Origin: a virus
Lineage: Duplodnaviria; Heunggongvirae; Uroviricota; Caudoviricetes
Length of the DNA stretch: 64,000 bases
IMG/VR virus record: IMGVR_UViG_3300044991_001838
Location: 1-64,000 of that record
Strand: one strand, 5' to 3'
Shown here: one piece after another, positions 647-53,473 of the stretch
How positions within the stretch are numbered: the stretch's first letter is position 1
Layout: each line of letters begins with the position of its first letter
Notes under the pieces: generated by a model
Seen by the model: the letters and a program-made list of their open reading frames with translations, nothing else
Databases searched by the model: none
What the model was told of the DNA's origin: nothing
Made by a program: the position numbers and the translations under genes

Positions 647-2071
647 TTAATTGCTTAAAGGTGCTTTAATTGTTGGATGTGATTGATAGTTTACAAGTTT
701 TAAATTATCATAAACATATTCATCAAACTTTAAATCGGGGTTAGTAACCATTACTAATGTTGGTAATCGATAAGGTTCTCTTGTTTTATAAGGAATTTTA
801 TATGAATCATAATATTCACTTAATCCACCACCAAACGGCATTAATTCATCAACCGCTTTATTATAATTTTCTTCACCCATCGCTTGTTTTAACAATTCTG
901 TTCTTTCTTCGTGAGTGTATTTTCTTCCAATCTGTTCTTTTGCTTGTTCAATATGATTTGAATATAAATGAACATCTCCTAGATTTCCAATCAACTCTTC
1001 AGGAACCATATTAACTTCTTTTGCAATTATTTCTAATAATAAACCATATGAAGCAATGTTGAATGGTAAACCTAAGAATGTATCTACTGAACGTTGATTC
1101 CACATTAACGAGATTGCTCTGGTTGGGATGTTACTTCTATCCCAAGATTCAACCGTCATAGGTGATACAAATTCAGAATCATAATTAGCTAATTTTTTTC
1201 TTTCTTCTAAACTCAACTCTCTTGTATAAACTTGAAATCCATAATGACAAGGTGGAAGAACCATTTGGTCTAATTCTCCAACATTCCAAGCATTAACCAT
1301 TAATCGTCTTGAGTCTGGATTTGTTTTAAGGTCGTTGATTAGGTTTTGGATTTGGTCTTTCCCACCAATATATTTGTCAAATTTATCATCAATTACTTTA
1401 GCAACTTGAACTGGGCAAAAAGATTCATTATAACCAAGTGTTATGTTTTTATAGTAAACTTTTTTACCTTCATCTTCATCACTGTAAAGAGATTGGTCAG
1501 AATCCTGTATCGGTGTTGTTAACCACTCAGTACCATTAGCAAATGAATGTAAATCACTCCACTTAATAGTCCAACCATTATCAGTTTTGTGTAAAAAACC
1601 CGTTTGTTTGGTATCTGTCCATCCACCCCAATTTCTCCATTGCTTACCATAAATTGGCCCTAATTCACCCCACTTGTTAGCAAACTCATCACTATTTATA
1701 ATTCGTTTTTCAAATTCTTTAGTAGAAATATTAGCAAACTTTGGTGAATTGTTTCCTGCAGTCCAGTACTTTGAATAGTTTTCATCATATCTTTTTTTAG
1801 CATCTCCTGTCCAAATATGACAACCATTTTCAATTAAATACTTAATATTTGTATCACCTCTAAGGAACCAAAGTAATTCTGTTACGATTGTTTTCCACGG
1901 CATTTTTTTGGTGGTGAGTAAAGGAAACCCATCTTTCATATTGTGACGGATTTGTCTTCCGAATACTGAGATTGTTCCTGTACCAGTACGGTCAGATTTA
2001 GGGGTTCCATTATCCAAGATGTCTTGTAATAGCTCTTGATATTTTTTATCTATATTGTTCATAAATCCCAA
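647..2071 (-). CDS. thyA: thymidylate synthase (ThyA/dUMP-pyrimidine C5 transferase family) with large insertions
   Basis: N-term DRTGTGT, FPLLTTKK...ELLWFLRGDTN, catalytic PPCHYGFQ, LGLPFNIASYGLL, LGDVHLYSNH, C-term HPTIKAP all match ThyA; about 30-aa and about 100-aa inserts plus a C-terminal insert relative to the E. coli ThyA remembered. Confidence 0.85.
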   Translation of the reverse strand: MGFMNNIDKKYQELLQDILDNGTPKSDRTGTGTISVFGRQIRHNMKDGFPLLTTKKMPWKTIVTELLWFLRGDTNIKYLIENGCHIWTGDAKKRYDENYSKYWTAGNNSPKFANISTKEFEKRIINSDEFANKWGELGPIYGKQWRNWGGWTDTKQTGFLHKTDNGWTIKWSDLHSFANGTEWLTTPIQDSDQSLYSDEDEGKKVYYKNITLGYNESFCPVQVAKVIDDKFDKYIGGKDQIQNLINDLKTNPDSRRLMVNAWNVGELDQMVLPPCHYGFQVYTRELSLEERKKLANYDSEFVSPMTVESWDRSNIPTRAISLMWNQRSVDTFLGLPFNIASYGLLLEIIAKEVNMVPEELIGNLGDVHLYSNHIEQAKEQIGRKYTHEERTELLKQAMGEENYNKAVDELMPFGGGLSEYYDSYKIPYKTREPYRLPTLVMVTNPDLKFDEYVYDNLKLVNYQSHPTIKAPLSN

Positions 2072-2231: not shown

Positions 2232-2423
2232 TTACTCATTCAAATATTTGTTAAATGTTTCCTTTGCTTTATCTAAATTTTCAACATCTTCATCAAAAAT
2301 GGTGTTAATAATAAATTCCGCTTCTTCTTCAGTACATTTTTCAATTATATCAATGTAAGTTTCTACTGAGACACCCAATCCCTGAGCAATACCCAAATCA
2401 ATTAATTCATATAATCCACCCAT
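2232..2423 (-). CDS. hypothetical small acidic protein
   Basis: 63-aa ORF, ATGA overlap with upstream gene. Confidence 0.4.
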   Translation of the reverse strand: MGGLYELIDLGIAQGLGVSVETYIDIIEKCTEEEAEFIINTIFDEDVENLDKAKETFNKYLNE

Positions 2424-2653
2424 TATTCTTCGTCAAACCCCCCATCTAATTCAAAATTTTCACCTTCTTCAACTTTACTATCAATGTATTCACGAAGTTC
2501 TTTCATAGATTGTAAGAATCCTAATCTTAATCTGTGAAATTCCTCATCTTCAATTTCATCCCAATTGGAATAACTTTCAAAGCAGTAGTCAAAACCTTCT
2601 TCATCCATTCTGTATTGGACTGATTGCCAAATTTCTAATTCATCGTATGTCAT
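2423..2653 (-). CDS. hypothetical acidic protein
   Basis: 76-aa ORF in operon. Confidence 0.45.
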   Translation of the reverse strand: MTYDELEIWQSVQYRMDEEGFDYCFESYSNWDEIEDEEFHRLRLGFLQSMKELREYIDSKVEEGENFELDGGFDEE

Positions 2654-3041
2654 CTGTATGTGTTTTAATTTTTTTTAGTCCGCTTATTAATAAAGACGCT
2701 GTGGAATAATTTGTTGCCAATGGTATATTATAAACATTACAAATTCGTAATAACATATTCACATCTACCTGATGGGGATGAAGACCTAGTGGGTCAATAA
2801 AAAATATAACAGCGTCTATTTCACCATCAGATATTAACGAAGCAATTTGTGCGTCACCACCTAAAGGACCTGATTTAAGACAATTTACATCAAGTCCTGC
2901 GTGTTCAATATGTTTTCCAGTTGTACCTGTCGCCATAACATCAACCTCTCTAAAGAAATCTAATCTCTTCATAATAAAGGCAACCATATCCGCTTTTTTC
3001 CCGTCGTGAGCAATTACCGCTATTCGTGTATTTTTTTTCAT
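2640..3041 (-). CDS. mgsA: methylglyoxal synthase-like protein
   Basis: IAVIAHDGKK...ATGTTG...LKSGPLGGDAQI...IFFIDPL...HPHQVDV...NIPLATN matches MgsA signature blocks. Confidence 0.75.
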   Translation of the reverse strand: MKKNTRIAVIAHDGKKADMVAFIMKRLDFFREVDVMATGTTGKHIEHAGLDVNCLKSGPLGGDAQIASLISDGEIDAVIFFIDPLGLHPHQVDVNMLLRICNVYNIPLATNYSTASLLISGLKKIKTHTDDIR

Positions 3042-3047
3042 CTTATC

Positions 3048-3479
3048 CTAATTTTGTATTTCGTTAGTTTTCAAATAATCTTCAATTAATAATTCTATTT
3101 TTTTTCTACCTTTTTCATTGATTGGTATTGGATTTCCTTCTTCGTCAATACGAACAAATCGTATATTAGTTTTTAAGACAATTACTTGATTACTCGTGTA
3201 AACATTATGTGCTCTCGCCTCCATGTATAATGTTACAGAGGTGATACCCAATTTAGAAGGTCTACCATATATTTTAAGTAATTGTCCTTCTTTAGCTGGT
3301 TTTTCAAAATAACATTTATCTATTGAAACTGTAACCATTCTTGGTGTATCACATAATTGCATAGAATACCCCGCAGCAGCGGCATCAATCCATGCGAGTA
3401 GTTTTCCACCAAACAAATTTCCATGAAATCCTAAATCCGATTTTTTAATCGGGTGTGTATTTAATAACTCCATACCCAT
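3048..3479 (-). CDS. hotdog-fold acyl-CoA thioesterase (YciA-like)
   Basis: GNLFGGKLLAWID...MVTVSID...F.KPAKEGQLL pattern typical of YciA/4HBT thioesterases. Confidence 0.65.
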   Translation of the reverse strand: MGMELLNTHPIKKSDLGFHGNLFGGKLLAWIDAAAAGYSMQLCDTPRMVTVSIDKCYFEKPAKEGQLLKIYGRPSKLGITSVTLYMEARAHNVYTSNQVIVLKTNIRFVRIDEEGNPIPINEKGRKKIELLIEDYLKTNEIQN

Positions 3480-3668: not shown

Positions 3669-3910
3669 AGTATTCCTGCCTCCTCTCTCCACATTTCTTC
3701 CATATGGTTTCTTGACGCGTTGTAGTTTCCGTAGTCGCCCCAATAATCCAATAGGGACTCAAACGCCAATTTAAGTTTATTATATTTTTGTTCGGATTCA
3801 TTTATACCAAAGACATAAGATTCTGTCATTGCGTCAATAACAGAATCTTTATCTAAGAATGAATTATGTACGATTTTTGATTCGTAAATTTCTTCTAATT
3901 TATTTTTCAT
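3665..3910 (-). CDS. hypothetical protein
   Basis: 81-aa ORF, ATGA overlap with RNA ligase gene. Confidence 0.45.
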   Translation of the reverse strand: MKNKLEEIYESKIVHNSFLDKDSVIDAMTESYVFGINESEQKYNKLKLAFESLLDYWGDYGNYNASRNHMEEMWREEAGIL

Positions 3911-4989
3911 GGTTCAATTTCTTTTTGCCAAAACGGTTTACTATATTGTGGTTTAATCAATTTCCAAATAATCTCATCATATGGTTTTTTATCCCACATG
4001 GCAAACATTATTGGTCGTAATACTTCTTGTTGTTTTAATACAAACTCCGCAAATTCTTTTTTTGTTGGTTCAGGGTCCACATCACCATATTTTCCATAAC
4101 GGAATCCATCGTGAAGTTTACCAGCTCTTTCAGATATTTGAAAAAACCCATATCTTAAATCTCTAATGGTATTTTTAACCCATTTATCAAATTCATCAGG
4201 GACTTTATCTAATAGTTCAGAGACATCTTTACCATCTTTTAGATATTCCCATATGTCAACATTTGAGAATCCAGTTAAGATTCTATGTAAACGAACATAT
4301 TCTTCCCCTTTTATTTTCATACGAAATCCGTTTCTAAAACGAATAACATAACCTTCGCGGTTTTGAGTTATTTGAGATTTAAGTATGTCGTAATCGGTTA
4401 CATCATCGTATTTTTTAACGGTTGGTAAACCACTTACTTCATTGATGGATAACATTGAAGTATAATCTAATTCTTTACCTGAGACATTACTTATCATACA
4501 TAATACAACCAATTCTTCATCATCACCATAATCACAAACAATACGATTTTCAGGGTAAATAATCTCTACAACGGTAGTATAACCTTTTGGTAAAACTTCA
4601 ACATTGTATTTTTCATTTAATATCTTAGTCCCTCTAATTGATTGGTCAGAAATAAACGAACCTTTACTTGCCAAAATCCAATTTCCTCTAAACCAAAATA
4701 AAATACCTAAAGAACCATCTAATTTTTCATATACTTCAAAAGTTTCTTCGGGGATGTCTTTAAAGGTTAATTCTTCGTAGTTGAAAAACTTATTAAATGA
4801 TTTTGCAACAACATTACCTTCATTATCCAAGATAAGCCCTCGGCAAATTTTAGTAACACTATCCCAGTTATTCTCATACTGACAAGTACGAGAATAATTG
4901 TATATTGAAATAGGAAGGGTTGGGTGGTCATTTTTAACCACCAACCCTCTTTCTATGTAATCGTTTAATATGTTTATATCTACGGTCAT
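3907..4989 (-). CDS. rnlA: RNA ligase 1 (T4 RnlA-like)
   Basis: YNYSRTCQYENNWDSVTKICRGLILD, KxDGS motif I (EKLDGSLG), EGYVIRF...KIKGEEYVRLH resemble T4 Rnl1 blocks. Confidence 0.75.
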   Translation of the reverse strand: MTVDINILNDYIERGLVVKNDHPTLPISIYNYSRTCQYENNWDSVTKICRGLILDNEGNVVAKSFNKFFNYEELTFKDIPEETFEVYEKLDGSLGILFWFRGNWILASKGSFISDQSIRGTKILNEKYNVEVLPKGYTTVVEIIYPENRIVCDYGDDEELVVLCMISNVSGKELDYTSMLSINEVSGLPTVKKYDDVTDYDILKSQITQNREGYVIRFRNGFRMKIKGEEYVRLHRILTGFSNVDIWEYLKDGKDVSELLDKVPDEFDKWVKNTIRDLRYGFFQISERAGKLHDGFRYGKYGDVDPEPTKKEFAEFVLKQQEVLRPIMFAMWDKKPYDEIIWKLIKPQYSKPFWQKEIEP

Positions 4990-7685: not shown

Positions 7686-8012
7686 TTAATATAGGTCTTC
7701 CGAATATAATGTTATTCTTAAATCATCTGTTTGACCAGCATCAAATGCTATTTGCCCACCTTCTTCTCTGTCCACAAATCTATTTGTGTTTGTTAAGAAT
7801 CCTTGTTCGTGTTCTCCGGAACAATCTTCACCAAATGTGCAAGTTCTTAATCCTGTCAAACTACCCATCGTCCATAATGCCTGCCCGTGTCTATGCCCTA
7901 ATACCACCAATCCCCTATCACAATTTTTTGGGAGAACACCATTAATAACCTTTTTCAGAGGTATGTCTTTATACCAAATTGCAGCACATAAAATATATTC
8001 TTTTTTCATCAC
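7686..8012 (-). CDS. hypothetical protein
   Basis: 108-aa ORF. Confidence 0.45.
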   Translation of the reverse strand: MMKKEYILCAAIWYKDIPLKKVINGVLPKNCDRGLVVLGHRHGQALWTMGSLTGLRTCTFGEDCSGEHEQGFLTNTNRFVDREEGGQIAFDAGQTDDLRITLYSEDLY

Positions 8013-9959: not shown

Positions 9960-9993
9960 AATTAAATAATTTTATGGGACAAAGATAATAAAA

Positions 9994-15558: not shown

Positions 15559-15586
15559 AAGAAGGGTTAAACACCCTTCTTTTTTG
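15559..15586. terminator. bidirectional terminator between convergent genes
   Basis: A-run, GAAGGGT-loop-ACCCTTC, T-run; overlaps clpP stop. Confidence 0.6.
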
Positions 15587-16247
15587 TTGTAACAACTTCA
15601 TCAATAATCCCGTATTCAAGTGCTTCATCCGCAGTTAACCACAAATCACGAGTAGCATCCAAAGTAACTTGTTCCTCAGTTTTACCACAATAAGAACCTA
15701 ACAAATCAAAAAGAATTTTATTTGTTTTTTCCCATTCCCTCATATTGATACGAGCATCTTGGATATTACCTCCTGCACCACCTGAAGATTGGTGTAACAT
15801 GGTTTTTGAGAATCTCAATGAACTTCTTTTACCTTTAGTTCCAGCCCCCAGCAATACGGACCCCATAGATGCCGCCATACCTGTGTTAATTGTTCTAATA
15901 TCACAAGAAATGTAATCCATAACATCTACCATTGAAAGTCCTGACTTAACACTTCCACCAGGAGAGTCGATATGCATCGTAATGTCCAATTTATCTGATG
16001 AATCTAAGAACATTAACTGAGCTTGGACTATTGTTGACATGTGGTCATTAACAGGTCCAGCAACCCATAAAATTCGGTCTCTCATTAATCTTGAAAAGAT
16101 ATCCATTTGAGTTACTCTCATTTCTCTTTCTTCCAAAATGTATGGAGTCATCGAATTCTCAATTTGAGAATTAAAATTATGTAAATCCAAAGATGGTTTA
16201 CCTAAATGTTTTACATAATAATTTTTAAAATCTTCGCCTATATTCAT
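15567..16247 (-). CDS. clpP: ATP-dependent Clp protease proteolytic subunit ClpP
   Basis: DSPGGSV, catalytic Ser (GMAASMGSVLL), His (MLHQS) and Asp (TRDLWLTADEA) in ClpP order; very close match to the E. coli ClpP remembered. Confidence 0.85.
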   Translation of the reverse strand: MNIGEDFKNYYVKHLGKPSLDLHNFNSQIENSMTPYILEEREMRVTQMDIFSRLMRDRILWVAGPVNDHMSTIVQAQLMFLDSSDKLDITMHIDSPGGSVKSGLSMVDVMDYISCDIRTINTGMAASMGSVLLGAGTKGKRSSLRFSKTMLHQSSGGAGGNIQDARINMREWEKTNKILFDLLGSYCGKTEEQVTLDATRDLWLTADEALEYGIIDEVVTTKKKGV

Positions 16248-17880: not shown

Positions 17881-17954
17881 CGGGGTGTGGACTAAAGGTT
17901 AGTCGCCTGGTTTGGGACCAGGACATCGAGCAGATTCGATTTCTGCCACCCCGA
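17881..17954 (+). tRNA. tRNA-Pro (UGG)
   Basis: Acceptor CGGGGTG/CACCCCG, D-stem GACT/AGTC, anticodon arm CCTGG-TTTGGGA-CCAGG, T-arm GCAGA-TTCGATT-TCTGC; 7-nt variable region. Confidence 0.7.
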
Positions 17955-17960
17955 CATTAT

Positions 17961-18045
17961 TGACATGTTGCCATAGAGGTCGAATGGTCCAGACTGTTAA
18001 TCTGGTGAGTAAAATCCGACGTAGGTTCGAATCCTACCGTGTCAG
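17961..18045 (+). tRNA. atypical tRNA: Asn-type anticodon loop CUGUUAA (GUU) but 15-nt variable region
   Basis: Acceptor TGACATG/CGTGTCA, anticodon arm CCAGA-CTGTTAA-TCTGG, T-arm GTAGG-TTCGAAT-CCTAC; 85 nt; variable segment TGAGTAAAATCCGAC without an obvious stem. Confidence 0.45.
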
Positions 18046-18087
18046 CTTTACTTTTCGAATATTTGTGATAGTTATTATTAACTAATA

Positions 18088-18648
18088 ATGTTAATAATGA
18101 GTAAATACTTCGAAAAAATAATAGAATTAAGAAATCAGGGTAAAACCTATAAAGAAATTTGTAAAGAATTACATTGTGCAATTTCAACAGTATCATATCA
18201 CTGTAAACTCAATAAAATGGGTGGTCATAGTGATAGATTGACAGATGAACAAAAATTAGAATTACAAAAACTTTATGATGAAATTGGTTCTGTTAAAAAA
18301 ATTGCAAAATTAAAAGGACATGCAATTAACACTGTTTTAAAATATGTTGTAACAACAAATAAAAATAAAACAGTTTCAAAAACTGAAGCAGTTATTGAAT
18401 GGAGAAAACGAACAAAACAAAAATTAATTGACTATAAGGGTGGTGAATGTGAATTATGTGGATATAAAAAATGTAACAGAGCTTTACAATTTCATCATCT
18501 CAATCCTGAAGAAAAAGACTTTTCAATTTCAGGAAAAAGTGTTAGTTTTGAAAAACTAAAAGACGAGGTAGACAAATGTATATTAGTATGTTCTAATTGT
18601 CATTCTGAAATACACGACGGTTTAGTTGAATTATTACAAGTGGGGTAG
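18088..18648 (+). CDS. HNH homing endonuclease with N-terminal HTH
   Basis: CELCGY...LQFHHLNPEEK...CILVCSNCHSEIH HNH; inserted between tRNA genes. Confidence 0.75.
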   Translation: MLIMSKYFEKIIELRNQGKTYKEICKELHCAISTVSYHCKLNKMGGHSDRLTDEQKLELQKLYDEIGSVKKIAKLKGHAINTVLKYVVTTNKNKTVSKTEAVIEWRKRTKQKLIDYKGGECELCGYKKCNRALQFHHLNPEEKDFSISGKSVSFEKLKDEVDKCILVCSNCHSEIHDGLVELLQVG

Positions 18649-18719
18649 GTGGAAAATTTCCAATGTTGTGGTATCGTGGATGGAGTAATCCTGAAGCATA
18701 AACAGACAAAAAGAAAGAA

Positions 18720-19208: not shown

Positions 19209-19330
19209 AAAGATTGGGTTGAGACTCCCCATAAAAAACAGAAAGACAGAATACGGGAAGTCACTACCCGAGAAACACGGTTCTTTCTCATTCAATTGTT
19301 ATAGGATTGTCACCTTTGAATTGAAATTTT

Positions 19331-19403
19331 GGTCCCGTGGTTGAATGGTTACAATTCCACCCTGTCACGGTGTGAGGTACGGGTTCGAATCCCGTCGGGA
19401 CCG
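19331..19403 (+). tRNA. tRNA-Asp (GUC), CCA encoded
   Basis: Acceptor GGTCCCG/CGGGACC, D-stem GTTG/CAAT, anticodon loop CUGUCAC, T-arm ACGGG-TTCGAAT-CCCGT, followed by genomic CCA at 19404-19406. Confidence 0.75.
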
Positions 19404-19409
19404 CCAAAT

Positions 19410-19481: not shown

Positions 19482-19532
19482 CAAGGGGTGTGTGGGAACC
19501 CAAGAATATGTGATGAGCATATACCCACAAAC

Positions 19533-23576: not shown

Positions 23577-23577
23577 A

Positions 23578-43773: not shown

Positions 43774-45534
43774 GTGACTAAAGAACAATTAATGATAGAA
43801 GTAACGAAGTGTTTGAGGAATACTCCTTATGCACTTCGTACTTATTTACAGACTTACGATAACACCGTATCCAAATACGTTCCGTTAGACTTATTTCCAG
43901 ACCAAGTAACCCTTATAGAAGATTACGATAACCACAATGAAAATGTTGCCTTAAAGTACCGACAGGCAGGGGTTTCAACAGTTACTGCCGCTTGGGCATC
44001 AAAAAAACTAGCTTTTGCCAAAAAAACCAAACCTGAAAAAATTCTAATCATTGCCAACAAATTAGATACTGCTATGGAGATGGCAAATAAGGTTAGAGGA
44101 TTTACTGAACAATGGCCTGCTTGGGTTGGAGTTGGATTTTCTCAGGAAAAAAATGCTCAACGACATTTTAAATTAACAAATGGTTGTGAGGTTAAAGCCG
44201 TTGCAACATCCCGAGATGCCTTGAGGGGTTATACCCCAACCATTCTAATATTTGATGAGGCTGCGTATATTGAAGCTGACGGAGATTTTTGGGCGGCTTG
44301 TATGGCATCCTTATCCACAGGGGGTAAGGTAATTGTAGTATCCACCCCAAACGGATATGACCCAATTTATTATGAAATCTATGACCAATCATTGAGAGGA
44401 ATGAATGATTTCAAAATTACTGAAATGTTTTGGTACCGTGACCCAAGATATACAAAAGATTTGTATATGGTCAAAACAAACGATTTAGTCCATTTTTTAT
44501 TGAATAGAGAAGAATATAACCTTGATGAGGTAATCATTGATTTATCAATGAGTAATCCATACGAGAGGGACCATTCAATAGTAACCGATTATGTTGAGCA
44601 AGGATACAAACCATGTTCTGCTTGGTTTGAAGGAATGGTTAAAAAATTAAAATACGATAGACGTAAGGTTGCTCAAGAGTTAGAATGTAACTTTTTGGGT
44701 TCAGGGGATAATGTATTTGATTCTGAAATGATGACAGACATATCTAAAAACCAAGTTAAAGACCCAATTGCAAAAATGATGGGTGGTGGACTTTGGATTT
44801 GGAAAGAACCTGTTAATGGTCATAAATATGTTATGGGTGTTGATGTATCTCGTGGAGATTCTGAGGATTTTTCTTGTATTCAAATTATTGATTTTGATGC
44901 AAGAGAACAAGTTTTAGAATATGTTGGAAAAATACCACCAGATATTTTGGCGGAAATTGCTTATAAATGGGGTACAATGTACAATGCTTATTGTGTAGTT
45001 GATTTAACAGGAGGTATGGGAGTTGCAACAGCTAGAAAAATGCAAGAGATGGGTTATCAGGCAGGAATGTACGTTGATAACGTCGATACAACAAACAAAT
45101 GGAAGTTTGACCCTAAGATGAATGAGAAGATACCTGGTATTAACTTTAACAATAAAAGGGTTCAAATTATCGCATCGTTTGAAGAATCTATGAGACATAA
45201 ATTTAGAATTTATTCAAGTAGACTTTATAACGAGATGAATACGTTTGTTTACATTAATGGTAGACCTGACCACCAAAAAAATCATCATGATGATTGTATC
45301 ATGAGTATTTCTATGGCAATATACGTTGCGGAGAAATCTTTCCAATCTTTAGAAAAGGTTGTGAACCATACCAAAGCGATGTTAAATTCATGGTCAAGTG
45401 TTATGAATGAGAATAAAAACACATCAGAATATTTTAATCCACTTGTTCCTCAAATGGGAAGACAATTCCCAATAAATCAAGGTCCATCCCGAGCCGACTA
45501 TGAAAAATACTCTTGGTTATTTCATTCACGATAA
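43774..45534 (+). CDS. terL: terminase large subunit
   Basis: ATPase Walker B ILIFDEAAYI, VVSTPNG; C-terminal nuclease region GVDVSRGDSEDFSCIQII; T4 gp17-like organisation. Confidence 0.75.
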   Translation: MTKEQLMIEVTKCLRNTPYALRTYLQTYDNTVSKYVPLDLFPDQVTLIEDYDNHNENVALKYRQAGVSTVTAAWASKKLAFAKKTKPEKILIIANKLDTAMEMANKVRGFTEQWPAWVGVGFSQEKNAQRHFKLTNGCEVKAVATSRDALRGYTPTILIFDEAAYIEADGDFWAACMASLSTGGKVIVVSTPNGYDPIYYEIYDQSLRGMNDFKITEMFWYRDPRYTKDLYMVKTNDLVHFLLNREEYNLDEVIIDLSMSNPYERDHSIVTDYVEQGYKPCSAWFEGMVKKLKYDRRKVAQELECNFLGSGDNVFDSEMMTDISKNQVKDPIAKMMGGGLWIWKEPVNGHKYVMGVDVSRGDSEDFSCIQIIDFDAREQVLEYVGKIPPDILAEIAYKWGTMYNAYCVVDLTGGMGVATARKMQEMGYQAGMYVDNVDTTNKWKFDPKMNEKIPGINFNNKRVQIIASFEESMRHKFRIYSSRLYNEMNTFVYINGRPDHQKNHHDDCIMSISMAIYVAEKSFQSLEKVVNHTKAMLNSWSSVMNENKNTSEYFNPLVPQMGRQFPINQGPSRADYEKYSWLFHSR

Positions 45535-45571
45535 GTATTTATATTATCAGAGTAATAAGTAAATTTACATT

Positions 45572-47428
45572 ATGGCAGAAAACAATAATAATCTGACGGT
45601 TTGGCAAAGACTATCACAAACATTTGGACCTAATTCACTTTTAGGACAAGATTACCCTACTTTCACATTTGATAAGAAGGAACTTTTACGCACAAAAAGT
45701 AGAGAAGAATACGAGAAAGAAAAATTACAAGCACAACAAACTTTTTACTTAACAAACCAATGGGCTAAGGTTGAAAATAACCTTTACTCACAAGCAATAT
45801 ATTATGAACCATCAAGACTGTCTGCACAATATGATTATGAATCAATGGAATACACTCCTGAGATTTCAGCAGCCTTAGACATATACGCCGAAGAATCTAC
45901 AACAACAAATGAAGATGGATTCATCTTACAAATTTATTCTGAATCAAAAAGAATTAAAGGAGTACTTGCCGATTTATTTAACAATGCTTTAGATATTAAT
46001 ACCAACTTACCAATGTGGACAAGAAACACTTGTAAGTATGGTGATAACTTTGTTTACTTAAAATTAGACCCTGAAAAAGGTATTGTTGGGGTACAACAAC
46101 TACCAACAATAGAAATTGAAAGACATGAGGTTGGGGTTAGTGCAAAAATATCAGTTGATATAACACAAGAATTAGAGAAAGACAAAAAATCCCTTCATTT
46201 TACTTGGAAGAATAAAAATATGGAATTTCAATCATGGGAGATTGCTCACTTTAGATTATTAGGTGACGATAGAAAACTTCCTTACGGAACTTCAATGTTA
46301 GAAAAAGCAAGAAGAATTTGGAAACAATTATTACTATCAGAAGATGCGATGTTAATTTATCGTACATCAAGAGCTCCTGAGAGAAGAATGTTCAAAGTCT
46401 TTGTGGGTAATATGAATGATGATGATGTTGAGGCATACGTAAACCGTGTTGCAAACAAATTTAAAAGAGAACAAATTGTTGACAAAAATACAGGTAATGT
46501 CGATATGAGGTTTAACCAAATGGCGGTTGACCAAGATTATTTTATCCCTGTTAGAGACCCATCAGCTCCTGACCCAATTACTACTTTACCTGGTGCAACT
46601 AACTTATCAGAGATTGCTGATATTGAATATATCCAAAAGAAATTATTAACCGCTCTTCGTGTACCTAAAGCATTTTTAGGTTTTGAAGAAGTTGTTGGTG
46701 ATGGTAAAAACTTGGCATTACAAGACATTAGATTCGCACGTACAATTAACAGAATCCAAAAGAGTATGTTAGCCGAGTTAAATAAAATTGCTATTGTTCA
46801 TTTATTCCTATTAGGATTTGAAGATGAACTTTCAAACTTTACTATTGGTCTTACAAATCCATCTACTCAAGCGGATTTATTAAAAATTGATGTTTGGAAA
46901 GAAAAGGTATTATTATACAAAGACTTAGTATCAGACCCAGGAAATGGTATTCAAGCAACCTCATCTACATGGGCTAAGAAACATATTTTTGGATGGTCAG
47001 ATGAAGAAGTTCGTTTAGATTTACAACAACAAAGAATTGAAAGAGCAGTTGGGGAAGAACTTAAAGCGACTGCAACAGTTATTACTAAAACAGGATTATT
47101 TGATAACATAGACAAATTATACGGAAGTGCAACAGGTGCAACACCAGCAGTAGGTGCAGAAACAACACCAGGAGGAACTGAAGAATTAAGTTCACCACCA
47201 TCATTTGGGGGAGGAGAGGAATTACCTGACCTTGGAGCTGAAGCACCACCGGCAGGAGAAGCTCCACCGGGAGGGGAGCCTGAATTAGCTCCCGAATCTA
47301 AGAAAAAAGACTTAAATATTTTGATAGAAAACAATTTAATTGAGGGGTCTTCTATGATAAACTTAGGTCATGGACAAGATTCTTTAGGAGAAATTTCAAA
47401 AGAACTTGATAAGTTATTAAATTCGTAA
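45572..47428 (+). CDS. portal protein (gp20-like)
   Basis: 618 aa immediately after terL; size and position typical of a portal; acidic Pro/Gly C-terminal tail. Confidence 0.55.
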   Translation: MAENNNNLTVWQRLSQTFGPNSLLGQDYPTFTFDKKELLRTKSREEYEKEKLQAQQTFYLTNQWAKVENNLYSQAIYYEPSRLSAQYDYESMEYTPEISAALDIYAEESTTTNEDGFILQIYSESKRIKGVLADLFNNALDINTNLPMWTRNTCKYGDNFVYLKLDPEKGIVGVQQLPTIEIERHEVGVSAKISVDITQELEKDKKSLHFTWKNKNMEFQSWEIAHFRLLGDDRKLPYGTSMLEKARRIWKQLLLSEDAMLIYRTSRAPERRMFKVFVGNMNDDDVEAYVNRVANKFKREQIVDKNTGNVDMRFNQMAVDQDYFIPVRDPSAPDPITTLPGATNLSEIADIEYIQKKLLTALRVPKAFLGFEEVVGDGKNLALQDIRFARTINRIQKSMLAELNKIAIVHLFLLGFEDELSNFTIGLTNPSTQADLLKIDVWKEKVLLYKDLVSDPGNGIQATSSTWAKKHIFGWSDEEVRLDLQQQRIERAVGEELKATATVITKTGLFDNIDKLYGSATGATPAVGAETTPGGTEELSSPPSFGGGEELPDLGAEAPPAGEAPPGGEPELAPESKKKDLNILIENNLIEGSSMINLGHGQDSLGEISKELDKLLNS

Positions 47429-47435
47429 TATTTAT

Positions 47436-48149
47436 TTGAAAATGAGTAAAATGACTTTTGGAAAAATTAAATCCTTTATTGAGAATAATCTGCTAGAATC
47501 CTACAAAAATGAGAAGGATTTCAAGAAGACATTGAGAGAATTCAAACATAATGTTTTGAGTAATAAATCTATGTCAAAAGCTTATGACCTATACAACCAA
47601 TTGAGTACACCTCAAGGGTTAAGTGAGTCTGATGCCAAAGAATTTTTGGATGAAGGAATTTCTTTATTACAAAAAGTTTTACCGTCAATTAAATTACCAA
47701 GAACAATATCAGAATCGGTTAAAAACCGTTATAACGATATTGATACATTAGTTTATACTCAAAAGTTAAACTTAATAGAAAGAATTGAATCTAAAAAAAA
47801 TATAGTTTCTATCCTTACCTCTAAACCTAATACGGTTAAAGAATCCATTAATATTCCCATAAAATCTATGGTTAGTATCGCTAACCAAACATTAAGAAAT
47901 TATTTGGATAACTTAGATGAAAATTCTAAAAAAGAATTTATACAACTTGTTTCTGAAGACACTAAAGTTTTGGAAGATAAGTTTGAAGTTATTCGTGAAA
48001 GTGCGATTTCTAAACTTCAAACATTATTAGAAAAAGAAGAAGAAAATGAAATTAAAACAAGAATTTCTGAAACAATTAATAAATTAAAAGACGAAAAGTT
48101 TGACCAAATGAATTTTTTAAGATTAAAAAATCTTGAATCATCAATCTAA
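47436..48149 (+). CDS. hypothetical head-module protein
   Basis: 237-aa ORF. Confidence 0.45.
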   Translation: MKMSKMTFGKIKSFIENNLLESYKNEKDFKKTLREFKHNVLSNKSMSKAYDLYNQLSTPQGLSESDAKEFLDEGISLLQKVLPSIKLPRTISESVKNRYNDIDTLVYTQKLNLIERIESKKNIVSILTSKPNTVKESINIPIKSMVSIANQTLRNYLDNLDENSKKEFIQLVSEDTKVLEDKFEVIRESAISKLQTLLEKEEENEIKTRISETINKLKDEKFDQMNFLRLKNLESSI

Positions 48150-48332
48150 ATTATCTTTTTTACTTTGAATATATTTTGCCTTTAAAATCTGTGCTCTTTT
48201 AAGTACAGATTTTTTTGTATACTCTTTTCTCAGATTTAATTTTTGGTTTTGTTTTGTCTTAATGACTTTGGACTTAAGAGTCTTTAAAGCTCTTTCAATA
48301 TTATCCCCACTATTAATTTTTACTATTATCAT
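48141..48332 (-). CDS. rpsU: ribosomal protein bS21 homologue
   Basis: MIIVKINSGDNIERALKTLKSKV...RKEYTKKSVLKRAQILKAKYIQSKK aligns with S21 ([21 protein letters not shown]...REFYEKPTTERKRAK). Confidence 0.7.
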   Translation of the reverse strand: MIIVKINSGDNIERALKTLKSKVIKTKQNQKLNLRKEYTKKSVLKRAQILKAKYIQSKKDNLD

Positions 48333-48432
48333 ATAATATACAAATATCTTGTTGTTTTAAAAAAATTTTGACAATTTGAGATATATGTCTTATTTTTTTG
48401 TAGAACATAAACACATATAATAATGAAAATTA

Positions 48433-48870
48433 ATGAAAAAGGGAAAAAGTGTAAAGTTAAATTTATACAATCCAATTAAATCCGTCTACGGTACAGTAGA
48501 TTCTAAAAATCTAAAATCTGTTTACATAAACATACAATCATGGGTAACCCCAAAAGAAGATTATGATAATTGGAACCGAATTGTTTCTAATTTAGGAAGA
48601 GAAATAAAACATTCTGTCTATGACTCAATAAACACTAAATTATTTCAAGATAAAAGTATTGTGGATTTAGACCTTAGAACTAGTGGAATATCTCACGGAA
48701 AAAAATCTTTTTTTAATTTAGAAATCAACCTATACACAAACTCTGAATTAGATTTTAAATCAATTGAAATTAAAGATTCAATTAAAATAATTGTAAAATC
48801 AGTATTCAGAAACAACATACTACAAAACAAATATTTTGATTTTTCAACATCAAAAAAAACTAATGAATAA
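48433..48870 (+). CDS. hypothetical protein
   Basis: 145-aa ORF. Confidence 0.45.
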   Translation: MKKGKSVKLNLYNPIKSVYGTVDSKNLKSVYINIQSWVTPKEDYDNWNRIVSNLGREIKHSVYDSINTKLFQDKSIVDLDLRTSGISHGKKSFFNLEINLYTNSELDFKSIEIKDSIKIIVKSVFRNNILQNKYFDFSTSKKTNE

Positions 48871-48909
48871 TAAACTATTGATTACCGCATATTTATCATA
48901 AAAGATTAA

Positions 48910-49626
48910 ATGAAAAAGTTAAGAATATTAGAGGCAAGTGAGACTGGTCACGGAATTTTAATTGAAACAGATGCGGGTTGGGTTTCCCCTAAAGAGAAAC
49001 ACAATGAGATTGTTTTGAAAGAAGCTAAAGAAATGGATTATAGAAACCCATTTGAATTTTATGCAGTACTACAAAAATATGATACACCAAACAGAAATGG
49101 TAGGTCATACCCTGAAAGAATCCTTAAAAGAGAAGCAGATAACTACAAACAAACAATTGCTAAAGGGTTATCAACTTCTGAATTAAATCACCCTGAATCA
49201 TCTCTTATTGATTTAGATAGAGTAGCCCACATCATTACTGATATATGGTGGGATAAAAATATTTTAATGGGTAAGTTAAAATTATTAACTTCACCAGGGT
49301 TTCACGAAAGAGGGATTGTTTCAACTAAAGGAGACCAAGCAGCAAACTTAATGAGACAAGGAGTTACTTTAGGGATTTCATCTCGTGGGGTTGGTTCACT
49401 TAAAAAAGTTGGGGAAAGAAATGAAGTACAAGATGATTTTGAATTAATCTGTTTTGACTTAGTGTCATCTCCATCAACACCAGGAGCTTACTTATTTTCA
49501 AATGCTGAAGATAGAGATAAGTACGAAGAAAATTTAGACGAAGAAAAAAAATACAAACAAAATAATGGAGTTGTTGAAAAAGAAGTTGACTTAATGAGAA
49601 AATTAAACGATTTTTTAGGAAAATAA
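48910..49626 (+). CDS. prohead core protease (T4 gp21-like)
   Basis: Position immediately before scaffold and capsid genes; NGRSYPERIL...ELNHPE...GISSRGVGS blocks resemble gp21 family. Confidence 0.55.
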   Translation: MKKLRILEASETGHGILIETDAGWVSPKEKHNEIVLKEAKEMDYRNPFEFYAVLQKYDTPNRNGRSYPERILKREADNYKQTIAKGLSTSELNHPESSLIDLDRVAHIITDIWWDKNILMGKLKLLTSPGFHERGIVSTKGDQAANLMRQGVTLGISSRGVGSLKKVGERNEVQDDFELICFDLVSSPSTPGAYLFSNAEDRDKYEENLDEEKKYKQNNGVVEKEVDLMRKLNDFLGK

Positions 49627-49638
49627 AAAAACACAAAC

Positions 49639-49848
49639 ATGGAAGAAAAGTATTTTGTTGCAAAAATTCAGTATGATTTACCTGATGAGAATACAGGTAA
49701 GATTAGAAAAATCAGAGAAGAGAAGTTAGTTAAAGGTTATTCTGTAACAGATGTTGAGGCAAAAGTTACAAAAAAATATGAGGGGTTTACTCATGAGTGG
49801 AGAATAACGGCAGTATCGGAAAGTAAAATTGACGAAGTTATTGAGTAA
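49639..49848 (+). CDS. hypothetical small protein
   Basis: 69-aa ORF, terminator follows. Confidence 0.45.
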   Translation: MEEKYFVAKIQYDLPDENTGKIRKIREEKLVKGYSVTDVEAKVTKKYEGFTHEWRITAVSESKIDEVIE

Positions 49849-49870
49849 TTAATTAACAATTTAAAAAATA

Positions 49871-49898
49871 AAAAAGTGGTCTTAGGGCCACTTTTTTT
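49871..49898 (+). terminator. rho-independent terminator
   Basis: AAAGTGGTC-TTAG-GGCCACTTT then T7. Confidence 0.65.
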
Positions 49899-49984
49899 GT
49901 TTAGGTAATATTTATGTAATAAAATAAACTTTGTTTACAATATGGTCAAATTGAATTTTTATCATATTGGAACTATTTATAAGT

Positions 49985-49992
49985 TATAAATA
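49985..49992 (+). promoter_or_regulatory. T4-type late promoter-like TATAAATA upstream of scaffold gene
   Basis: Exact TATAAATA 12 nt upstream of ATG 50004 in a T4-like head module. Confidence 0.35.
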
Positions 49993-50003
49993 ATTAATTT
50001 TTC

Positions 50004-51632
50004 ATGCAAGAAAATAACAAATTAGTACAAGAGGCACTTATTCAAATGAGACAAGTTGAAGAAGCGATAGCCGAAAATGCAAAAGGAATACTTGCTTCAA
50101 CTATGAAGGAAGAAATCAATCAGTTAGTAAAAGAATCTTTATCTGAACAAGATGATGATGAGGTTGAATTAGATGTTGATATGGATGACGACGACATGGA
50201 AGATGTTGACGTTGACATTGATACTGATTATGAAGATGATGACGTAGACATGGATTTTGACATGGATACTGATTCTGAAGAAAGTCCGATAGACTTAACT
50301 GACGCTTCTGACGAAGAAATTCTTAAGGTGTTTAAAGCAATGGGTGAAGAAGATGGCATCATAGTAAAAAAAGATGGTAACGATATTCACTTAACTGACA
50401 ATGACTCTGATGAAGAATATCTAGTTAAGCTTGGTGAATCTGAAGAAGAATATTACGAAGATATGGATGGAGATATGGATGAAGAACACGATGTTGATAC
50501 AGAAGATGTAATTAACGCAATCTTTTCTAAAGACGGTGACGCTTCAGATATTGAAGTAGACCAAGACGACGAAGAAGTTATGTACGAAATCGAATTTGAA
50601 GAGGATGACGATATGTTAGACGAAGAGGATGACGATATGTTAGACGAAGAGGATGACGATATGTTAGACGAAGAGGATGACGATATGTTAGACGAAGAGG
50701 ATGACGATATGTTAGACGAAGAGGATGACGATATGTTAGACGAAGAAGACGAAGACGAAGATTTGGGCGAATCTTACAACCGAAGAAAAACTGTTAGAGA
50801 AGCAAAATCAACAATTAAACCTAAAGGTGTTGGAATTGGCTCAGGACCTAAATTCACTTACAAAGATAAAGCTGCGGGTGGATTTAAAGAGGACAAAAAA
50901 CAAGGTCCTAAATCAGTGGGTACTGGTAAAGCAAAATTTGAATACAAAGCGGGAGCAAATATGGAAGGAAAATCCAAAGTTGTTAAGGCAGAAACAAAAG
51001 AAGGTCAAGGATACAAAGACAAAGAAGATGAAAGGTTAGCAATGAAACATGGTAAAATTGCTTCAAAAGACCTTAAAACGACTAAAGCTCGTAGAGATGA
51101 CGCAGGTTTTGAAAAGAGAGAAACTAAAGAAGCTGCTAGAACTTATGGAATGGGTTCCAAAGAAGGTAGAGGACTTAGAAAAGGTATTACTAATAACAGA
51201 AATTATGTTTATGGTAATAGTGGAGTAAAAGTAGAATCTACTCAACAAGAAGTTAATATGTTGAGAGAGAAAAATGAAGAATACAGAAAAGCGTTAAATA
51301 TTTTCAGAGAAAAACTTAACGAAGTTGCAATCTTCAATTCAAACTTAGCGTATGCGACTAGATTGTTCACTGAACATTCGACTACTAAAAAAGAGAAAAT
51401 AAATATCTTAAGAAGATTTGACGATGTTGAAACTTTAAAAGAATCTAAAAATCTTTATCAGTCAATTAAAGGTGAGTTATCTAAACCAGATACAAAATCA
51501 ATTAATGAATCAGTAGAAACAAGATTAACAAAACAAGTTTCTTCAGGTTCATCATCTACACTAATTGAATCTAAAACTTACGAAAATCCTCAATTCATGA
51601 GAATGAAGGATTTGATGAGTAAATTAGGGTAA
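50004..51632 (+). CDS. scaffolding protein (gp22-like), highly acidic with tandem repeats
   Basis: Six EEDDDMLD repeats, extreme D/E content, located just upstream of major capsid gene; TATAAATA upstream. Confidence 0.6.
   Translation: MQENNKLVQEALIQMRQVEEAIAENAKGILASTMKEEINQLVKESLSEQDDDEVELDVDMDDDDMEDVDVDIDTDYEDDDVDMDFDMDTDSEESPIDLTDASDEEILKVFKAMGEEDGIIVKKDGNDIHLTDNDSDEEYLVKLGESEEEYYEDMDGDMDEEHDVDTEDVINAIFSKDGDASDIEVDQDDEEVMYEIEFEEDDDMLDEEDDDMLDEEDDDMLDEEDDDMLDEEDDDMLDEEDDDMLDEEDEDEDLGESYNRRKTVREAKSTIKPKGVGIGSGPKFTYKDKAAGGFKEDKKQGPKSVGTGKAKFEYKAGANMEGKSKVVKAETKEGQGYKDKEDERLAMKHGKIASKDLKTTKARRDDAGFEKRETKEAARTYGMGSKEGRGLRKGITNNRNYVYGNSGVKVESTQQEVNMLREKNEEYRKALNIFREKLNEVAIFNSNLAYATRLFTEHSTTKKEKINILRRFDDVETLKESKNLYQSIKGELSKPDTKSINESVETRLTKQVSSGSSSTLIESKTYENPQFMRMKDLMSKLG
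50598..50741 (+). repeat. six exact 24-bp tandem repeats in scaffold gene
   Basis: gaagaggatgacgatatgttagac x6 encoding EEDDDMLD. Confidence 0.85.
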
Positions 51633-51670
51633 AAAAATAAAAATAAATAAAATTAATAAAAACCAAAAAA

Positions 51671-53473
51671 ATGGGAGCATTATTAGAATCAGGTCTAGTT
51701 GGTAACATCGGGTTAAAACACCTTAAAGTTATCAAAGAAGACACAATCAACAAATGGGACAAATTAGGATTCTTAGAGGGTCTTAAAGGTCACATGAGAG
51801 AAAACGTAGCACAACTTTACGAAAACCAAGCATCGTATTTAATTAACGAAGCATCATCTACATCTGATACAGGTGCATTTGAAACTGTGGTTTTCCCAAT
51901 CGTTAGAAGAGTATTCTCTAAACTTTTGTCAAATGACATCGTTTCAGTACAAGCTATGAACTTACCAATCGGTAAATTATTCTACTTCGTACCAAATATT
52001 CAAGCATACACTGATGAATCAAACGCAAACACAGGTATCCACTACGCACCGTATGGTTCACCAAACGCGTCTGACGCACAAACACCAAACAGTGGTTATG
52101 ACTATAACAACACTAAAGACCTTTATGATAGATTCTACGAAGGTAATGAACCAGCTTTAGACCCACCAGGTTTATTTGACTATTCAAAAGGACAATTTTC
52201 TGCAATCACAGCTACGGTTACTACTGTATCATGGTTAGCGGACCAATTAGTTCCTTCAGGTTATAGTGAAGATAACTATAGAAAAGTTCTTATTGTAATG
52301 TCAGGTTTTGCATCTGATGGAGCAGGTAAATTAATCGGTCCTGACGGTCAACCGATGGATAACGAAGCGTTCTTATCTGATTTAACAGTTTATGGTGTTG
52401 CGGGTAACCCTACAACAGCAGCAAATGTTAATAACCCTTACTTATTTAGAGTTGTAACTCAAAGATATGGTAAAGGTATTGTTCAATATGGTAACAATAA
52501 CTCAACTTTAGTATTCCCTAACAGTAAAACTGATGGTGGTCAATATGACAACTTATGTGATGCTCAAGGTAAAATTTACTTAGAGGTTGATTTACAAGTA
52601 CCGGTTTGTATCACTTGTGGTGGTTCAATGGACGGTTATACAGGTTCAACTTTCTCATCTACAACAGCTTTAGATAGTGCGTTCACTGCTAAATATAGAA
52701 TCTACAAAAACTTAGAGTTTGAAGATAGAATCGGTGAGGTATCTTTCGACCTTATGTCAGTTACAGTTTCTGTAACAGAAAGAAAATTAAGAGCACAATG
52801 GTCTCCAGAAATGGCACAAGACGTTGCGGCATTCCACAACATTGATGCTGAAGCTGAATTAACGGCTTTATTATCTGAACAAGTTGCAGCTGAAATCGAC
52901 CGTGAAATCTTAAGAGATTTACGTAAAGGTGCAGCATGGAACTTACGTTGGGATTACAATGGTTGGAAACGTTTAGGTTCTTCTGCAGTTCCTTATACTC
53001 AAAAAGACTGGAACCAAACGCTTATCACAGCGATTAACCAAATCTCAGCTCAAATCCACAAATCTACATTAAGAGGTGGAGCTAACTGGATTGTTGTTTC
53101 TTCTGAAATCTCAGCTATCTTTGACGATTTAGAATACTTCCACGTATCAAACGCTTCTCCTGAGCAAGACCAATACAACATGGGTATTGAAAGAGTAGGT
53201 ACTTTAGCAGGTCGTTACCAAGTGTACAGAGACCCTTATTTCCCACCAAACCAAGTGTTATTGGGTCACAAAGGAACATCATTGTTAGACACAGGTTACA
53301 TCTACGCACCGTACGTACCTTTACAATTAACTCCAACAATGTATAACCCATTCAACTTCACACCAATCAAAGGTATCATGACTAGATACGCTAAGAAAAT
53401 GGTAAACAACCGTTTCTACGGTAGAATTACAGTTGATGGTGTAAGAACATTTGACTTAAGAGAGTTGAGATAA
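51671..53473 (+). CDS. major capsid protein (T4 gp23-like)
   Basis: VVFPIVRRVFSKLLSNDIVSVQAMNLPIGKLFYF parallels gp23 VMGMVRRAIPNLIAFDICGVQPMNSPTGQVFAL; C-terminal YAPYVPLQLTP...MTRYAKK parallels gp23 YYAPYVALTP...KTRYG; strong terminator follows. Confidence 0.8.
   Translation: MGALLESGLVGNIGLKHLKVIKEDTINKWDKLGFLEGLKGHMRENVAQLYENQASYLINEASSTSDTGAFETVVFPIVRRVFSKLLSNDIVSVQAMNLPIGKLFYFVPNIQAYTDESNANTGIHYAPYGSPNASDAQTPNSGYDYNNTKDLYDRFYEGNEPALDPPGLFDYSKGQFSAITATVTTVSWLADQLVPSGYSEDNYRKVLIVMSGFASDGAGKLIGPDGQPMDNEAFLSDLTVYGVAGNPTTAANVNNPYLFRVVTQRYGKGIVQYGNNNSTLVFPNSKTDGGQYDNLCDAQGKIYLEVDLQVPVCITCGGSMDGYTGSTFSSTTALDSAFTAKYRIYKNLEFEDRIGEVSFDLMSVTVSVTERKLRAQWSPEMAQDVAAFHNIDAEAELTALLSEQVAAEIDREILRDLRKGAAWNLRWDYNGWKRLGSSAVPYTQKDWNQTLITAINQISAQIHKSTLRGGANWIVVSSEISAIFDDLEYFHVSNASPEQDQYNMGIERVGTLAGRYQVYRDPYFPPNQVLLGHKGTSLLDTGYIYAPYVPLQLTPTMYNPFNFTPIKGIMTRYAKKMVNNRFYGRITVDGVRTFDLRELR

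Follow-up and report, generated by a model that had tools for sequence, protein, structure and literature searches.

A conserved methylglyoxal synthase gene carried as a single-gene cassette by large freshwater Bacteroidota phages

The carbon and phosphate auxiliary metabolic genes of cyanophages include talC, zwf, gnd, CP12, pstS and phoA. The gene described here, mgsA, encodes a methylglyoxal synthase (MgsA) and lies at 2640..3041 on the minus strand of a 64,000-nucleotide (nt) stretch of viral DNA (Caudoviricetes; IMG/VR record IMGVR_UViG_3300044991_001838, positions 1 to 64,000), called the window throughout. Directly upstream is the gene for a hotdog-fold thioesterase (TE). Bacterial MgsA yields methylglyoxal and inorganic phosphate (Pi), and its pathway may serve as a detour around lower glycolysis that regenerates Pi (PMC13641704). 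The roles of the catalytic residues, Asp71 and His98 with the supporting His19, Asp20, Asp91 and Asp101 in the Escherichia coli numbering, are summarized in PMC7843640. Phosphate allostery in the E. coli enzyme is transmitted by a bridge from Arg150 to Asp20 of the neighboring subunit, and the Hill coefficient is 3.4 in E. coli versus 1.5 in the tail-less Thermus enzyme (PMC4133812). A second allosteric route, through Pro92, Arg107 and Val111, is defined in the same work (PMC4133812). In the O. profundus and C. difficile enzymes, an Arg-Glu salt bridge (R81-E90 and R79-E88, respectively) links the loop after beta4 to helix alpha5 (PMC7843640).

The mgsA reading frame has an ATG start and encodes 133 amino acids. 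Judged from its sequence, the product is a true MgsA with an intact active site. It scores above both NCBIfam MgsA equivalog cut-offs, with 168.7 bits for NF003559 (cut-off 84) and 155.7 bits for TIGR00160 (cut-off 146.9), and matches the Pfam MGS domain with 57 bits. A PDB sequence search at E<=1e-3 matched MgsA entries alone, 11 distinct sequences with E values of 1e-32 to 1e-27, and brought up neither PurH nor CarB. The protein is stand-alone and single-domain, against a family expectation of ~120-155 amino acids. The fold expected of the family is a flavodoxin-like three-layer one that assembles into a homohexamer. The first-pass annotation of this DNA, made by a model from the letters alone, had called the gene a methylglyoxal synthase, with an MGS-like domain of the PurH or CarB kind as the alternative; the equivalog scores, the MgsA-only PDB matches, the stand-alone length and the retained catalytic Asp and His all favor the former.

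Aligned to E. coli MgsA, the phage protein is 46% identical across 116 amino acids; the E. coli reference sequence is consistent in length and residue numbering with the 1B93 match of the PDB search. All 13 active-site and phosphate-binding residues are present in the phage protein as H12, D13, K16, T38, T40, T41, S57, G58, D63, D83, H90, D93 and R99, the equivalents, in order, of E. coli H19, D20, K23, T45, T47, T48, S65, G66, D71, D91, H98, D101 and R107. The catalytic Asp71 and His98 correspond to D63 and H90, and the supporting His19, Asp20, Asp91 and Asp101 to H12, D13, D83 and D93. Phosphate binding by Lys23, Thr45-Gly49 (TGTTG) and Ser65-Gly66 has its counterpart in K16, T38-G42 and S57-G58, which are likewise unchanged between copies. 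Each of the 13 residues is invariant across 47 distinct phage copies. The catalytic Asp and His, whose loss on alignment the first-pass annotation had named as the observation that would count against an MgsA, are therefore kept throughout.

The C-terminal helix that carries Arg150 in E. coli is absent from every phage copy, and the protein ends ~12 residues past the core. This tail-less state is common to the bacterial relatives and so is not a phage innovation. The second allosteric route is conserved, with P84, R99 and V103 at the positions of Pro92, Arg107 and Val111. Three substitutions are specific to the phage proteins when they are set against 80 bacterial relatives: I82 (Arg in 95% of the relatives), Q91 (Glu or Asp in 100%) and N102 (Asp in 95%). 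I82 and Q91 are the positions of both partners of the Arg-Glu bridge, which flanks the catalytic Asp91 and His98. In the active E. coli MgsA, Trp and Thr occupy the first and third of the substituted positions, so those sites tolerate change. With the Arg150 tail missing and both Arg-Glu partners lost, the phage MgsA would be expected to show weaker cooperative inhibition by phosphate than the E. coli enzyme. An 'Arg80-Asp100' allosteric bridge in the Thermus enzyme was also considered and rejected, as it is unsupported by the papers (PMC4133812).

The window is part of the genome of a large freshwater Bacteroidota phage that is distantly related to Flavobacterium phage immuto. The genome measures at least 130 kb (130-270 kb), of which the window spans 64 kb. 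The structural module (43774..53473, plus strand) holds the large terminase (43774-45534), the portal (45572-47428) and the major head protein (51671-53473), with PHROG matches phrog_2, phrog_213 and phrog_138. T4-type genes are also present, namely RnlA, thymidylate synthase, a Y16D-family protein and a small AAA_33 kinase. At the nucleotide level, the match to isolated phages is confined to 146 nt inside thyA, from Flavobacterium phage vB_FspM_immuto (genus Immutovirus). The window head protein has close relatives on more than 600 IMG/VR contigs. The gene had been taken for phage-encoded from the start, and this holds, since phage genes lie on both sides of it, the structural module is in the same window, and elsewhere mgsA sits three genes from the head protein.

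At least 166 IMG/VR loci encode relatives of this MgsA, 60-97% identical, on contigs of up to 298 kb. All locus counts given here come from pattern-based scans of fragmentary contigs and are to be read as lower bounds; the flanks covered on related contigs were 8 kb long. MgsA matches in the protein database number in the thousands, and the best 120 are all at least 92% identical. The identical protein recurs in ~100 blocks of public freshwater assemblies, and the records that carry it are freshwater metagenomes. Among the matches listed, the closest cellular MgsAs are at most 62-65% identical to the phage protein, in a pattern-based scan that may have missed a closer cellular relative. These cellular matches come mostly from Bacteroidota (Saprospiraceae, Cyclobacteriaceae, Lewinellaceae, Sphingobacterium and Flavobacteriales).

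A neighbor-joining tree was built from the 47 distinct viral sequences and 80 cellular sequences, with E. coli as the outgroup. One clade holds 45 of the 47 viral MgsAs (196 of 200 bootstraps). The next branch contains two viral contigs (L074 and L079) and three sequences from low-GC Bacteroidia metagenome-assembled genomes. Two of the latter (L128 and L153) come from true Bacteroidia chromosome, with BamA, UppS, OmpA and a TonB-dependent receptor nearby. Within the phage clade, the median pairwise ratio of nonsynonymous to synonymous substitution rates (dN/dS) is 0.078 (442 pairs). The GC content at third codon positions (GC3) of mgsA is 0.21, versus 0.21-0.29 in phage neighbor genes and a median of 0.44 in bacterial homologs. 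Monophyly, low dN/dS and the GC3 match argue for one old capture from a Bacteroidia host and long residence under purifying selection. The sequences thus indicate a single capture from a low-GC Bacteroidia chromosome by an ancestor of the Immutovirus-related phage group. On the two Bacteroidia chromosomes, mgsA is directly downstream of a 3-hydroxyacyl-coenzyme A (CoA) dehydrogenase-like gene, overlapping or abutting it (L128, 3309-4384; L153, 3272-4396). A neighbor from acyl-CoA metabolism thus occurs in a bacterial setting as well.

In the window, mgsA and TE belong to a dense co-directional gene array that spans ~10.3 kb down to the window start. TE (3048..3479, minus strand; ATG start) encodes 143 amino acids and is separated from mgsA by 6 nt, and both frames lie exactly where the first-pass annotation had placed them. 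The 3' end of mgsA overlaps by 14 nt the start of orf76 (2423..2653, minus strand; 76 amino acids; phrog_17752, function unassigned). The TE start directly follows the stop of the upstream gene. Further upstream is a backbone gene for a T4 RnlA-like RNA ligase (3907..4989, minus strand; Pfam RNA_lig_T4_1, 69 bits; phrog_562, 226 bits), whose stop overlaps the start of orf81. Downstream, thyA (647..2071, minus strand; 474 amino acids with a large internal insertion; Pfam Thymidylat_synt, 289 bits) anchors the TE-thyA interval. The tight packing and the family-model scores argue that the mgsA and TE frames did not arise by chance. In a scan of the window, no intergenic space, terminator or recognizable promoter was found between the pair and its neighbors. 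A scan for sigma-70 promoters and terminators gave nothing above the shuffled expectation, with a sigma-70 model that is uninformative for a Bacteroidota host, and an Rfam scan found no riboswitch or intron near either gene.

The mgsA gene is found in at least four different gene contexts. One is the RnlA-thyA region, as seen in the window; in another, mgsA adjoins an HNH endonuclease and a carbamoyltransferase; a third covers various arrangements close to thyA; and in one large lineage the gene is three genes away from the major head protein and points the opposite way to its neighbors. Contigs syntenic with the window delimit the cassette. L168 and L169 share RnlA, orf81, TE (98% identical), orf76, orf47 and thyA with the window and are without precisely the ~380 nt of mgsA, so that orf76 directly follows TE. 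L001 and L002 have mgsA (97%) and orf76 and no TE, and the RnlA-like ligase is syntenic in all four contigs. The left junction of the cassette is the 13-nt sequence AAATTAGGATAAG (3042..3054, minus strand), which abuts the mgsA ATG on its 5' side, takes in the TE stop codon, and is identical in the window and L002 despite different upstream genes. The right junction is orf76. In L168, everything from the AAATTAGGATAAG junction to the orf76 start is missing. A direct repeat of the orf76 5' end, 50 nt long (48 of 50 identical), brackets mgsA in L001 and L002. This repeat is likely the footprint of cassette insertion by homologous recombination, that is, a recombination scar. Its copies are at 2032-2081 and 2515-2564 in L001 and at 7907-7956 and 8389-8438 in L002, the upstream copy encoding a truncated pseudo-start (MTYDELENRQSVQYRMD*). 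A consistent small partner gene of mgsA was also considered; from one lineage to another the upstream and downstream neighbors change and seem unrelated, and orf76 also occurs where mgsA is absent.

The place of TE beside mgsA had been read as a sign of joint function in rewiring host metabolism, and this part of the first-pass annotation was not borne out. Neighborhoods were counted within an 8-kb radius at 80 mgsA loci and at the best 80 of 358 TE loci (80-98% identical). A TE homolog was found in 2 of the 80 mgsA loci (L007 and L012), where it is downstream of mgsA rather than upstream, and mgsA was found in none of the 80 closest TE loci. The two genes are thus adjacent only in the window population, where TE adjoins mgsA upstream in all six contexts retrieved with the identical MgsA, and, reversed, in one other lineage. 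Both genes are present on four contigs, at distances of ~19 to 70 kb. A shared neighbor is thyA, which is near mgsA in 19 of the 80 mgsA loci and 0.4-2.6 kb downstream of TE in 25 of the 80 TE loci. The failed adjacency counts, together with the TE-only and mgsA-only variants of the same syntenic region, argue that the two genes are gained and lost independently. The arrangement is best explained if the TE-thyA interval is a plastic backbone region into which mgsA would have been inserted, its adjacency to TE being incidental. In L167 (11338-12489), serine hydroxymethyltransferase (SHMT) takes the place of thyA downstream of TE-mgsA, a swap of one one-carbon/nucleotide gene for another in the same plastic region.

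By its sequence features, TE is a hotdog acyl-CoA thioesterase and a more widespread accessory gene of the phage backbone, separate from mgsA. At least 358 IMG/VR loci encode its relatives. It matches Pfam 4HBT (PF03061) with 56.1 bits (cut-off 20.6) and falls in phrog_18230. Its closest solved relatives are acyl-CoA hydrolases, 1vpm (E 4.6e-14), Acot12, Acot7 and YciA HI0827. The earlier description of TE as a YciA-like hotdog thioesterase is right as to the hotdog acyl-CoA hydrolase group (YciA/Acot7/Acot12-like) and does not extend to the YciA family itself, as the score for the YciA equivalog NF007970 is 32.5 bits against a cut-off of 162. The residue D32 at the head of the central helix and the FGG motif (F23-G24-G25) are invariant in 46 distinct copies. 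A catalytic role for this Asp is suggested by what is known of YciA and Acot7. The median dN/dS of 0.067 indicates purifying selection. TE is 68% identical to a 'hydrolase/thioesterase' of Flavobacterium phage immuto, where the gene sits two genes from thyA.

The first-pass annotation did not count mgsA among the standard auxiliary metabolic genes, and the present searches agree. No PHROG match for MgsA was obtained, no verified isolated phage with mgsA was found, and one passing mention was located in the literature. That mention is a KEGG-based listing of the Lake Baikal virome that includes MgsA, and a 120-kb viral scaffold bearing mgsA was dominant in one oligotrophic Lake Baikal sample (PMC8066274). 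Beyond this listing, nothing was found on methylglyoxal in phage infection or on K01734 in viromes. The mgsA matches in the isolated-phage collection were considered as independent phage acquisitions and rejected: the largest comes from a bacterial chromosome, and the rest are short contigs with no annotation. The former (L248; MT835478.1, 79173-93541) has mgsA among mreC, pbp2, minC, minD, rodA and a dacA-like gene. The INPHARED matches H5-H26, labeled 'Bacteriophage sp.' or 'Listeria/Enterococcus phage', are unannotated fragments. Bacterial contamination of a phage collection matters when phage genes are counted. Being host-derived, phage-flanked, conserved and under purifying selection, the window mgsA belongs to the well-known category of phage auxiliary metabolic genes.

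The comparisons show a conserved, selected, phage-resident MgsA with an intact active site. With high confidence, the protein would convert dihydroxyacetone phosphate (DHAP) to methylglyoxal and Pi in the infected cell. A single, old, conserved and mobile acquisition across an abundant phage group implies that this reaction pays off during infection. What it pays is suggested, with moderate confidence, by the proposals made for bacteria, where the benefit would be regeneration of Pi and relief of a sugar-phosphate imbalance. The phage MgsA may act as a valve on the triose-phosphate pool. Host DHAP would be turned into methylglyoxal and Pi during infection, which would free phosphate and relieve a backlog of sugar phosphates under phosphate scarcity. 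The freed phosphate could sustain upper glycolysis and nucleotide synthesis for a large genome in phosphorus-poor lakes, and damage from methylglyoxal may be limited by host detoxification or by a short latent period. The thyA neighborhood, the SHMT of one variant and the dominance of the Baikal scaffold are consistent with a phosphate benefit and are not proof of it. Taken whole, the account in which a captured and selected cassette MgsA turns DHAP into methylglyoxal and Pi to the phage's phosphate benefit, independently of TE, has in our judgment an even chance of being right.

Several observations weigh against this account. The phosphate-benefit step is drawn by analogy with bacterial physiology, and the physiology of the bacterial methylglyoxal pathway is itself described as 'largely unknown' (PMC13641704). 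The 64-kb window holds no phosphate-stress gene such as phoH or pstS, and no glyoxalase, DJ-1 or aldo-keto reductase. The gene is accessory, with ~166 loci (a lower bound) versus more than 600 contigs with the head protein of the phage group; since mgsA is patchy and immuto is without it, the benefit must be conditional. The three charged-residue changes, Arg to I82, Glu to Q91 and Asp to N102, could mean altered enzyme properties. Lastly, the AlphaFold2 model of MgsA has the alternating strand/helix order and is unreliable, with a predicted local distance difference test score (pLDDT) of 52 and a predicted template modeling score (pTM) of 0.49 from a shallow alignment at least 89% identical.

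Methylglyoxal itself may instead be the point of the reaction. As an electrophile it would arrest host growth or macromolecular synthesis, inactivate defense proteins, or harm competitors and superinfecting phages. Methylglyoxal, a cytotoxic compound, modifies Lys, Arg and Cys residues (PMC13641704), and such a use would fit an MgsA that has neither the Arg150 tail nor the Arg-Glu bridge, which could mean looser control, the lineage in which mgsA is a lone, oppositely oriented moron in the late/structural block, and a window in which no detoxification gene was found. The same electrophile would, however, damage phage DNA and proteins too; the short tail-less form is common to bacterial relatives, the residues of the second phosphate-sensing route are intact, and no literature was found that links methylglyoxal to phage infection. 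We consider this explanation unlikely, though it is the most credible of the alternatives. An extended version is more doubtful still: a deregulated MgsA would flood the infected cell with electrophile and free phosphate as a host-takeover or anti-defense device, the presence/absence polymorphism of the gene would track the phosphorus stress of lakes, and TE, where adjacent, may mop up lactoyl-thioesters. About as doubtful as that is a carbon and energy bypass, in which MgsA and host glyoxalases would lead to D-lactate and pyruvate, uncouple glycolytic flux from ADP/Pi and glyceraldehyde-3-phosphate dehydrogenase, and keep precursors flowing as host metabolism collapses. The established bypass does turn methylglyoxal into lactate and then pyruvate (PMC7843640; PMC13641704), and nucleotide and one-carbon genes are frequent neighbors of mgsA (thyA in 19 of 80 loci, SHMT in L167). 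The bypass yields no ATP, however, no phage-encoded downstream enzymes were seen in the 64-kb window, and the idea overlaps so largely with the phosphate explanation that sequence does not separate the two.

The locus itself might suggest that MgsA and TE form a two-step unit, with TE hydrolyzing, in the manner of glyoxalase II, the lactoyl-thioester of methylglyoxal and a thiol (CoA, a bacillithiol-type thiol or glutathione). The 6-nt gap in the window population, the presence of TE directly upstream in every contig with the identical MgsA, the adjacency in opposite order in the L012 and L007 lineage, and the four contigs with both genes all point this way. They are outweighed by the count of mgsA within 8 kb at 0 of the 80 closest TE loci and of no TE within 8 kb at 78 of 80 mgsA loci, by syntenic counterparts of this region that have TE alone or mgsA alone, by distances of 19-70 kb on shared contigs, and by immuto, which has TE without mgsA. 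Both genes tend independently toward thyA, and this is enough for occasional adjacency, which leaves the two-step unit improbable. Least probable is that mgsA is an artifact or a neutral passenger, whether mis-assembled host DNA, a decaying moron or an MGS-like domain of other function. In its favor, mgsA matches in the isolated-phage collection proved to be bacterial DNA (MT835478.1, for example), but here mgsA is flanked left and right by phage genes in dozens of independent assemblies, its composition has ameliorated fully to that of the phage, dN/dS is 0.08 with invariant active-site residues, the phage clade is monophyletic, and the equivalog thresholds are passed. 

The window carries other features of its own. 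Twenty-two transfer RNA (tRNA) genes (17881-27357, plus strand) cover most amino acids and are interspersed with small reading frames. The Bacteroidota-type promoter motif TTTG-N17-23-TAnnTTTG has 17 matches against 6.8 expected, a number reached by none of 100 shuffles, and several of the matches are just upstream of gene starts. In this window scan, no minus-strand match was found in the vicinity of mgsA or TE. A TATCTTTG box recurs in short gaps before gene or tRNA starts, in many cases with TTTG lying 17-23 nt upstream, for example at 9980-9987 (minus), 22229, 22447, 26827, 30963 (minus), 31708 (minus), 32926 and 57619 (minus). The box is likely the Bacteroidota-type promoter consensus of the window phage, as its placement suggests. 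A full-length Rfam match to transfer-messenger RNA (tmRNA) at 31298-31693 (minus; 47.9 bits versus a gathering threshold of 47, E 7.5e-16), which was not called by ARAGORN, has a Bacteroidota-type promoter match directly upstream (31708-31738, minus) and is possibly a phage-encoded tmRNA.

The insertion in thyA is ~85 residues long (about 150-235) and varies between relatives. Just after it, 146 nt (1213-1358) are 96.6% identical to immuto thyA, with no other megablast match in the surrounding 12 kb, and thyA is split into fragments in several related loci (compare L164, L037, L038 and L080). These features suggest that recombination or a mobile element, such as an intron or a homing endonuclease, may act on thyA. 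In immuto (L161, 22513-34887), a 7-deazaguanine DNA-modification set of FolE, QueD, QueE and DpdA is beside the thyA-TE region; this set was not seen among the window reading frames scanned. The window encodes a ClpP (15567-16247, minus), which is 73% identical to that of L074, and a 670-amino-acid ATP-dependent protease/ATPase (phrog_4871; 34487-36499, minus). The immediate neighbors of mgsA in L074 (5992-9043) are a ClpA/B-like ATPase on one side and ClpP on the other, and several other loci have ClpP within five genes of mgsA. Accessory genes at 8000-38400 include a ferritin/rubrerythrin-like gene, a HAD_SAK_2 domain of RNA-repair type, DUF6915, a glucosaminidase and HNH endonucleases. A 190-amino-acid reading frame with no PHROG match is two genes from mgsA in L001, L002 (8780-9352) and L012 (5941-6507). 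By eye its product resembles a flavodoxin-like NAD(P)H quinone-oxidoreductase, and a link to electrophile or quinone stress would be speculative.

The product of MgsA is toxic, its purpose in bacteria is debated, and the phage clade that carries it is large and old. Natural near-isogenic genotypes with and without mgsA (the window type, L168/L169 and L001/L002) occur in the same lakes. They allow tests of whether phages tap the host sugar-phosphate pool for phosphorus and of what the methylglyoxal bypass is for. The TE adjacency carries a caution, that neighboring genes in hyperplastic phage regions are not to be read as functionally coupled.

Set beside the known thioesterases YciA, Acot7 and Acot12 (PDB 1VPM, 1YLI, 4MOB and 4ZV3), TE shares the hotdog 4HBT domain, the FGG motif and the central-helix Asp. 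It differs from YciA in its sub-cut-off equivalog score and in its position in a phage backbone by thyA, where it is not tied to mgsA. Its phage homologs are found in Flavobacterium phage immuto and Xanthomonas phage XacN1. The phage MgsA resembles the bacterial enzymes (EC 4.2.3.3; 1B93 from E. coli, 2X8W/2XW6 from Thermus sp. GH5, 6F2C, 1WO8 and 1VMD) in its single MGS domain and similar length. It is 46-53% identical to the crystallized bacterial MgsAs, with every catalytic and phosphate-binding residue present, and like the Thermus enzyme and the Bacteroidota relatives it is short and tail-less. It differs in being encoded by phages, in forming a clade of its own, at most 65% identical to the cellular sequences among the matches listed, and at three charged positions (Arg to I82, Glu or Asp to Q91, Asp to N102). 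Like the cyanophage-type auxiliary metabolic genes, mgsA is host-derived, under purifying selection in lytic phages, patchy and moron-like, and it plausibly redirects host flux toward nucleotide production. Unlike them, it makes a toxic electrophile and would remove carbon from energy-yielding glycolysis.

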